Assembly (NCBI RefSeq): GCF_003334255.1
Contig: NZ_QOWU01000139.1
DNA length: 2,234 nt
Direction: 5' to 3' (one strand)
DNA from: Escherichia coli
GTDB taxonomy: Bacteria > Pseudomonadota > Gammaproteobacteria > Enterobacterales > Enterobacteriaceae
The notes beneath the pieces were generated by a model, which saw only the letters and a list, made by a program, of their open reading frames with translations, had not been told where the DNA came from and did not search any database. The stretch's first letter is position 1. Each line of letters opens with the position of its first letter. The position numbers were made by a program, and so were the translations under genes. Of this stretch, positions 51 to 272 are shown in pieces.

Positions 51-272
51 TTATCGGTGCTGGTTGATGAGGCTTTGTAGTTCTGCCAGATCTTCGGCGA
101 GATAGCTGAAGACTGCCGCGTAATACCCGGCAGCGATACCGTCGTTAAGTCGGTGTAATACGTTTGACTGCATGATAAAGGCGACAGATGCAGCCCGATG
201 GAGTCTGCGGTTGATTTCGCTGCGGATGTGAAGACGCTCAGCGCGGGCGCGCTGTTGCTTGCGGTTTGCCAT
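51..272 (-). CDS. Small hypothetical protein, 73 aa, with an arginine-rich basic N-terminus; possible nucleic-acid-binding regulator
   Basis: Complete ORF from ATG (272..270) to TAA (53..51). A Shine-Dalgarno AAGAGG lies 7 nt upstream of the ATG (reverse complement of ~280-285). The N-terminus MANRKQQRARAERLHIRSEINRRLHR is highly basic and the C-terminal half looks helical. No family recognised with confidence. Confidence 0.5.
   Translation of the reverse strand: MANRKQQRARAERLHIRSEINRRLHRAASVAFIMQSNVLHRLNDGIAAGYYAAVFSYLAEDLAELQSLINQHR

Follow-up and report, generated by a model that had tools for sequence, protein, structure and literature searches.

The window, by which we mean the whole 2,234-nt stretch of Escherichia coli DNA analysed here (contig NZ_QOWU01000139.1), contains a short gene for an arginine-rich protein on its minus strand. 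The initial annotation of the window had described this open reading frame (ORF) of 73 amino acids at positions 51–272; our translation is identical to the one quoted there, and residues 1–26 of the protein indeed comprise eight arginines and one lysine. Upstream of the gene and on the same strand lie a predicted promoter and two RNA genes, an isrK-like leader and a C4-type antisense RNA, together with six short segments that are complementary to one another (a1, b1, a′, b′, a2 and b2). In the direction of transcription, the features are:

Positions 533–562, minus strand: predicted sigma-70-like promoter of the isrK-C4-ORF unit (TTGCCA, 18 nt, TACATT) with a start at about position 526, found in a promoter scan.
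Positions 452–526, minus strand: isrK-like leader RNA (Rfam RF01394, 64.3 bits against a gathering threshold of 50), which carries a1 and b1.
Positions 501–495, minus strand: a1, complementary to a′ and covarying with it.
Positions 486–478, minus strand: b1, located inside the isrK-like RNA, complementary to b′ and covarying with it.
Positions 472–457 (stem) followed by U7, minus strand: intrinsic terminator closing the isrK part, found in a terminator scan.
Positions 329–416, minus strand: C4/CI-type antisense RNA (Rfam RF01695, 82.8 bits against a gathering threshold of 45, E 3e-16, full-length model).
Positions 375–364, minus strand: b′ loop of C4, pairing with b1 and b2.
Positions 357–351, minus strand: a′ segment of C4, pairing with a1 and a2.
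Positions 319–325, minus strand: a2 (UUCGCAG), the target and 7-bp complement of a′ (−10.5 kcal/mol).
Positions 281–291, minus strand: b2 (CUAGCAAAGAG), the target of b′, which overlaps the Shine-Dalgarno (SD) sequence and forms an 11-bp duplex with b′ (−14.6 kcal/mol).
Positions 280–285, minus strand: SD sequence AAGAGG, read from the sequence, 7 nt before the ATG at 272–270.
Positions 51–272, minus strand: ORF of 73 amino acids with an ATG start (272–270) and a TAA stop (53–51), encoding a P4 epsilon/E-family 'derepression protein' and putative antirepressor.

A length of 73 codons is by itself weak evidence of coding, as 25 ORFs of 30 or more amino acids occur in the window. In a large protein collection we found 132 homologues; E. 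coli is the source of nearly all of them, and most bear the name "derepression protein", as does the RefSeq record of the protein itself (WP_016237669.1). The frame is uninterrupted in all of 56 distinct nucleotide variants. Furthermore, the pairwise ratio of nonsynonymous to synonymous substitution rates (dN/dS) amounts to 0.30 in this frame versus 1.38 in an overlapping frame, which reveals purifying selection on the former, while the third frame is closed by stop codons in every variant. Because of the homologues, the intact frame and the difference in dN/dS, 51–272 is a real gene with a selected coding frame. For the region upstream, we aligned 308 nt from 61 viral-contig loci (L004–L064) that encode homologues, 45 of which are unique. 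In all 45, the element (A/C)GAGGCC is retained and followed after 5–7 nt by an ATG. The basic amino-terminus is a shared property as well: the pattern MANRKQQRA.A.R.HI..EI.R.L.RA is common to 31 distinct protein variants, and its basic character is also kept in distant homologues and in P4 epsilon (MRNKK...).

Whereas the initial annotation had considered that no family could be assigned, the protein matches the Pfam entry PF25738, 'Derepression protein family' (E 2.2e-6, 27.8 bits, residues 10–65). P4 epsilon matches the same entry over residues 1–95 (E 1e-50), and most close homologues of the 73-aa protein carry a precomputed PF25738 label. The relationship is reciprocal at the level of PHROG families, since the 73-aa protein finds phrog_3688 (1e-31) and phrog_10016 (4e-4), and P4 epsilon finds phrog_10016 (1e-62) and phrog_3688 (8e-9). 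A BLASTP comparison of the two proteins gave 34% identity over 50 amino acids (E 1e-8). In an alignment of 14 sequences the 73-aa protein is collinear with P4 epsilon over its full length, from MANRK/MRNKK through FSYL(A/N)(E/D)D, and both share H15, E19, L24, R26, A27, Y57 and D61 in addition to the FSYL motif. The subfamily of the 73-aa protein is narrow; an exhaustive search of 1.84 billion representatives yielded 12 clusters at 50% identity with E up to 1e-3. Judged by its sequence, the 73-aa protein is a member of the P4 epsilon/E derepression family (PF25738), which agrees with the earlier notion of a small regulatory protein, and it probably represents a branch of the P4 epsilon antirepressors with a predicted antirepressor activity.

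This assignment bears on the role that had initially been proposed for the arginine-rich segment, namely that of an RNA-binding antiterminator, such as those of the lambda N type, or of a small basic DNA binder that autoregulates through a repeated motif. In favour of nucleic-acid binding, nine basic residues occur among the first 26, they are conserved across the family and the segment is predicted to be helical; an additional contact with RNA would be compatible with the data. The homologue P4 E, however, does not bind DNA by itself; it binds the P2 C repressor protein, and the resulting complex is unable to bind DNA (PMC2995052). Because of this homology, the 73-aa protein appears to be an antirepressor acting by protein-protein contact rather than an antiterminator or a DNA binder. 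There is also no Pfam, NCBIfam or PHROG match to antiterminator or DNA-binding families, and the repeated motif is accounted for by covarying RNA-RNA pairing, as detailed below. Structure prediction, which had been suggested as a route to the family, gave an AlphaFold 2 (AF2) model of a helical hairpin (helices 2–41 and 47–72; mean predicted local distance difference test score, pLDDT, 79.9). In this two-helix model, the arginine-rich segment forms the first half of helix 1 and no helix-turn-helix is seen. The fold itself did not lead to a family: a Foldseek search of the model against the Protein Data Bank (PDB) returned generic or designed helical hairpins only, all with E above 0.6, and a sequence search of the PDB with the 73-aa protein found nothing related. 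Taken together, we regard a nucleic-acid-binding function of the amino-terminus as very unlikely.

The RNA genes explain the DNA motif that the initial annotation had noticed over the SD sequence. The motif, CUAGCAAAG(AG), occurs at 291–281 and at 486–478, and its complement is found at 374–364. These are the C4 loop b′ and its two complements, b1 and b2; a second set is formed by a′, a1 and a2. Thus, the reported overlap is confirmed (SD 285–280, motif copy 291–281), and the presumed control element turns out to be the C4 target site b2. The C4 RNA is encoded 57 nt upstream, and the RF01695 match is likewise present in phages P88 and P4. For a1 and b1, the dedicated c4-a1b1 Rfam model gave a weak score only (19.9 bits against a gathering threshold of 46.7). 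In the full read-through RNA, a1/b1 are predicted to pair in cis with a′/b′ (minimum free energy −111 kcal/mol, z −4.1).

The alignment of the 45 unique loci shows how these segments evolve. The backbones of isrK and C4 are almost invariant, whereas the six short segments are hypervariable and change together. We counted 14 types of the b′ loop and 7 types of the a′ segment, which occur in 22 combinations; a′ and a2 covary across at least 6 types. When pairing is scored as the mean longest complementary run, with G-U counted as half, cognate partners clearly surpass non-cognate ones for b′–b2 (9.5 versus 5.2), b′–b1 (8.8 versus 4.9), a′–a2 (7.4 versus 4.2) and a′–a1 (7.2 versus 4.3). Variation of b2 is confined to the part 5′ of the SD sequence, and GAGG is fixed. 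In the promoter, the hexamers are conserved and the spacer is variable. It is important to note that such covariation of loops and targets is the signature of an RNA-RNA recognition that sets immunity specificity, as in P1/P7, where C4 blocks antirepressor synthesis at the ribosome-binding site and determines heteroimmunity (PMC12197685). Since cognate pairing covaries, the motif is not a protein operator. Instead of pointing to autoregulation or to a link with the divergent gene, as had been surmised, the motif is b2 and varies in step with the C4 loop. In two recombinant loci (L012 and L013) the a1/b1 decoy sites are mismatched to their own C4.

From the computed identities of the gene and the RNAs, their complementarity and their covariation, a switch can be proposed. 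We think it likely, albeit with considerable reservation, that the locus encodes a C4-gated epsilon-type antirepressor that inactivates a P2 C-type repressor in a P2-like prophage. The promoter at 562–533 would transcribe the isrK-like leader, the C4 RNA and then the 73-aa gene, yielding either a short isrK-like RNA or, upon read-through, a precursor that contains C4 and the ORF. Folded C4 would expose b′ and a′ for pairing with their targets b2 and a2, located either in the leader of its own transcript or in that of another one. Because b2 overlaps the SD sequence, pairing of b′ with b2 is expected to block the ribosome-binding site of the 73-aa gene and hence its translation. In P4 and P1, equivalent C4-type pairing also leads to premature termination, and by analogy C4 pairing would probably permit termination ahead of the replication genes here as well. 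The isrK-like RNA with its decoy sites a1/b1 may compete for C4. If C4 control fails, for instance when a related phage supplies a transcript with another a/b specificity that the resident C4 cannot pair with, the 73-aa protein would be made. It would then inactivate the P2 C-type immunity repressor by protein-protein binding, so that the prophage, or a co-resident P2-like prophage, would be pushed toward lytic development. The translational block by C4, the most likely mechanism, is inferred from P4, P1 and Gifsy-1, and repressor binding and the biological trigger likewise from homologous systems.

Several points weigh against this proposal. The PF25738 match is modest (27.8 bits), the identity to P4 epsilon is limited to 34% over 50 residues, and the antirepressor role of the subfamily of 73–76 amino acids is a putative one, taken over from homologues. 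Likewise, the translation block, the termination and the RNA processing are suggested by analogy. The target deserves particular attention. Among 54 non-redundant loci, the variable centre of the 73-aa protein falls into 3 clusters as compared with 14 clusters of resident repressors; one type of the 73-aa protein co-occurs with 12 repressor types, and the 14 clusters include a 134-aa repressor that is not of the C type in 6 loci. The Mantel correlation between protein and repressor across the 54 loci is 0.20–0.22 and no higher than with merely linked genes. There is, thus, no sign of a pairwise specificity between the 73-aa protein and the resident repressor, and since the two do not covary, the repressor as target is unproven. 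The 73-aa protein may recognise a repressor surface that is conserved, or may act on a different target altogether. Finally, AF2 modelling of a fusion of the repressor, a (GGGGS)6 linker and the ORF, run with a genome-paired alignment, gave no confident complex (predicted template modelling score 0.41), although this was a weak design (monomer with monomer, no predicted aligned error) and the outcome therefore does not speak against a complex. In the fusion, the pLDDT of the ORF was below that of the ORF modelled alone.

The resident repressor (L001 15156–15455) is a full-length homologue of P2 C (E 4e-26 to PDB entries 2L49/2XCJ). The most conserved part of the repressor alignment is the carboxy-terminal half with the pattern KY..W...GQI.P.L. 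In P2 C, residues T67 and I70 matter for E (PMC2995052), and both fall in this conserved half, which is where a surface recognised by the 73-aa protein may lie. More broadly, the P2 C-family repressors found next to this module (L067–L146) form at least 14 clusters with 30–40% mutual identity that have the carboxy-terminal KY..W...GQI.P.L in common. The repressor type tracks the integrase type (Mantel 0.79) and hardly the replication region.

A different emphasis is suggested by the position of the gene. Like icd of P1, kil of P4 or orf45 of Gifsy-1, the 73-aa ORF might act mainly as a translated leader: its C4-gated translation would prevent Rho termination and let the downstream 138-aa ORF and the replication endonuclease gene gpA be expressed, with the peptide being of secondary importance. 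Indeed, the 73-aa gene is the first one after C4, has b2 on its SD sequence and takes the position of icd in P1 and kil in P4. The replication genes come next, and we found no intrinsic terminator between the 73-aa gene and them. In Gifsy-1, expression of the downstream genes requires translation of the equivalent ORF (PMC4825925). Moreover, the overlapping frame mentioned above may hint that coupling matters, as its end coincides with the start codon of the following gene. On the minus strand this frame is open from at least the AUG at 412–410, at the 5′ end of C4, through window positions 1–412 and on to about position 8971 of L001; it traverses a2, b2, the whole 73-aa ORF and a hairpin downstream of it. 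The AUG lies at +115 from the isrK start, as compared with +107 and +120 for the orf45 AUGs of Gifsy-1. In 42 of 46 P88-type loci, the frame ends in an ATGA overlap with the start of the next gene; among the 21 loci that are of the same type as the window, 19 have its stop, a TAA, 11 nt into that gene. Within the 73-aa ORF, it is free of stops in all 56 variants, compared with about 19% of synonymous-codon shuffles. Yet it shows a dN/dS of 1.38, and in 4 of the 45 loci its register is lost through indels in a2. The frame may have a coupling function like that of orf45, or it may have arisen by chance; in either case, 51–272 stays the selected coding frame.

What argues against a mere leader cistron is that the protein sequence itself is under purifying selection (dN/dS 0.30), that it can be aligned along its entire length with a homologue of known activity, P4 epsilon, and that the next ORF starts 68–72 nt downstream with an SD sequence of its own. 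We therefore rate the leader cistron as an unlikely main role, while noting that it is compatible with the antirepressor role.

By its length and its position the 73-aa ORF also recalls P1 icd, whose product Icd is a cell-division inhibitor, and one could envisage an Icd- or Kil-like toxic peptide. However, the protein could not be aligned to P1 Icd at E up to 100 and matched no NCBIfam Icd-like model; its homology is to epsilon instead. Identity with Icd was rejected on the grounds that equal length and position are not accompanied by any similarity, and a toxic peptide in general seems extremely improbable to us.

Returning to the proposed C4-gated antirepressor, its surroundings are those of a phage with its own immunity system. 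In the E. coli chromosome NZ_AP045180.1, the counterpart of the window (99.4% match) belongs to a P2-like prophage adjoining ppa/chpB. Along the minus strand of the window, the prophage genes are arranged in the order integrase, 99-aa repressor, Cox, small early genes, DNA adenine methylase and DUF4406, followed by the divergent plus-strand gene, the 73-aa gene, the 138-aa ORF, the replication endonuclease gpA and, farther on, portal and terminase. The 138-aa ORF and gpA are located outside the window, and a comparison of the 138-aa ORF with P4 orf151 revealed no homology. Among sequenced phages, P88 and other Xuanwuvirus (Peduoviridae) as well as Citrobacter phiSM come closest, with 60–73% protein identity. 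PADLOC defence-system models matched neither the 73-aa ORF nor its neighbours.

Another antirepressor of this kind of phage is Tum of coliphage 186, which is under SOS control. A Tum-type SOS-controlled antirepressor was rejected here, as neither the window nor the 20-kb early region has a LexA box. Specifically, CTGT-N8-ACAG is absent from the control region and from the 20-kb early region (L001 1–20234), and the one LexA-like match of the window, with one mismatch, is at chance level. Nor was a Tum-like gene found in the same 20-kb region. P88 and Sp13, relatives that carry this module, are reported to be inducible by mitomycin despite non-cleavable repressors: P88 was recovered by mitomycin C (PMC5285337), and a paper of 2009 pointed to a P4 epsilon-like gene in Sp13, a P2-like prophage of O157 Sakai, that might account for the unexpected induction of this prophage by mitomycin (PMC2669165). 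In an O157:H7 genome we detected a homologue of the 73-aa protein in a degraded P2-like prophage comparable to Sp13.

Downstream of the 73-aa gene, between its stop codon and the next gene, the sequence contains one further feature:

Positions 8–40, minus strand: G+C-rich stem-loop without a U tract.

This stem-loop is conserved in P88 (L002 5515–5550) and could serve RNA stability, processing or pausing.

On the other side, the plus-strand gene at 659–1126 encodes 155 amino acids with a hydrophobic core (PHROG 6315, function unknown) and is preceded by a perfect −10 element, TATAAT, at 592–597. The initial annotation had the 73-aa ORF diverge from this membrane-protein gene. The opposite orientation holds, but because the intergenic 386 nt accommodate two RNA genes and a promoter, all on the strand of the ORF, it is the whole isrK-C4-ORF unit and not the ORF alone that is divergent from 659–1126. 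The allele of 659–1126 occurs in only 2 of 5426 E. coli genomes, and the gene is absent from P88. In a prophage with about 93% identity in the flanks, the allele at this position is only 37% identical. At its 3′ end, the gene overlaps the convergent DUF4406 gene by 40 bp. From these sequence comparisons, 659–1126 looks like a fast-diverging accessory (moron-type) locus and not like a partner of the 73-aa gene.

Annotations in this type of region call for some caution. RefSeq sometimes labels the overlapping frame "ash family protein" (matches H27–H29, H37 and H40). The Pfam entry PF10554 (Phage_ASH, 'Ash protein family') matches the obsolete 'cI ORF' of P4 that lies over the CI/C4 RNA (L003 8168–8584). 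One survey used PF10554 as its 'epsilon' profile (PMC8628076); contrary to that use, true P4 epsilon belongs to PF25738. Coding sequences (CDSs) for a 'hypothetical protein' run antisense to isrK-C4 in P88 (gp13, L002 5033–5221) and in an E. coli prophage (L148 633–821). In phage mEp460 an annotated 'antirepressor' CDS runs through the RNA genes (L147 841–1992). Protein annotations over isrK and C4 are probably translations of conserved RNA and not real proteins.

When compared with known systems, the locus most closely resembles the immunity region (CI RNA, seqA-seqC) of the satellite phage P4. The 73-aa protein shares with epsilon the PF25738 family and a collinear alignment, the RNAs follow each other on one strand in the same order (isrK-like leader with a1/b1, C4/CI RNA, a2/b2, with b2 on the SD sequence of the first cistron), and replication genes follow downstream. 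In the P4 sequence as we read it, a b2-like site lies on the SD sequence of a 65-codon first cistron, which we take to be kil, and epsilon (95 amino acids) starts at its end. Unlike in P4, where kil precedes epsilon, C4 control here begins directly with the 73-aa epsilon-like gene as the first cistron, without kil or icd. Furthermore, the element is not a satellite but a P2-like phage, the kind of helper that P4 uses, with its own P2 C-type repressor, and the ORF downstream of the 73-aa gene is unrelated to P4 orf151.

The order a1, b1, C4, a2, b2 and first cistron, with b2 at the ribosome-binding site, is also that of the immI region of P1/P7 (the P1 record is annotated a1, b1, c4, a2, b2, icd, ant). 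There, too, C4 loops set specificity via compensatory changes and the output is an antirepressor, which in our case is putative. However, the first cistron here is not Icd, the antirepressor would be a small epsilon-type protein rather than a separate large Ant, and in place of the two classical specificities of P1/P7 at least 22 combinations are found. A third relative is isrK-orf45-anrP of the Salmonella prophage Gifsy-1, where a terminator likewise closes the isrK RNA, transcripts reading through it enter a C4-like segment, and an antirepressor gene follows. In Gifsy-1, short IsrK acts in trans and activates translation upstream of the antirepressor AnrP (PMC4825925). The cis pairing of a1/b1 with a′/b′ predicted for the window resembles 'structure A' of the isrK-orf45 RNA (PMC4825925), and a positional counterpart of orf45, which begins at about +115 and extends as far as the start codon of the following gene, is present here as well. 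In contrast, the cargo of Gifsy-1 is of the Rha/AnrP type and resides in a lambdoid prophage, whereas that of the window is of the epsilon type in a P2-like prophage; moreover, the orf45-like frame here traverses the whole epsilon-like gene, out of frame. With Tum of coliphage 186, the 73-aa protein would have in common that a small phage antirepressor enables the induction of a P2-like prophage. It differs from the LexA-controlled Tum in that the early region has no LexA box, that control would be by antisense RNA, and that the two sequences were not found to be related.

Among 5426 complete E. coli genomes, 1937 carry the isrK-C4 backbone, which was also found in 96 phage records. Its cargo may be the epsilon-like protein, Rha/antirepressor-type genes (in lambdoid and Stx phages), or genes of P4-like satellites. 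Since the backbone precedes such varied genes, the C4-gated antirepressor is a recurring cassette. The PF25738 family, the membership of C4 and isrK in Rfam and the RefSeq name "derepression protein" are already known; what differs from the textbook cases is the epsilon-like first cistron, the P2-like host element and the large number of specificity types.

Two ideas that go beyond the single locus may be put forward together, although we hold the combination to be doubtful. According to the first, a diversified C4 'lock' sits on a nearly universal epsilon-type antirepressor; according to the second, the epsilon-like gene is nested in an orf45/'Ash'-like ORF. If the first were true, three sequence types of the antirepressor would be gated by at least 22 a/b specificities, and related phages would contest superinfection immunity at the RNA level, as P1 and P7 do. 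The induction of prophages such as P88 and Sp13, whose P2 C-type repressors are non-cleavable and which lack a LexA box, would thereby be explained as well. If the second were true, one stretch of RNA would be antisense RNA, antisense target, antirepressor gene and translational-coupling track at the same time.

For the window, the outcome is that the small basic protein is no orphan and that the motif over its SD sequence is the target of an antisense RNA. The occurrence of the gene in P2-like phages of the helper type, and not in a satellite, suggests an exchange of modules between P4-like satellites and their helpers. The switch offers one candidate explanation of why mitomycin induces P2-like prophages with non-cleavable repressors, an idea that was raised for Sp13 in 2009. 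Because the isrK-C4 backbone is so widespread among E. coli genomes, understanding one of its cargoes helps to read many prophage switches.

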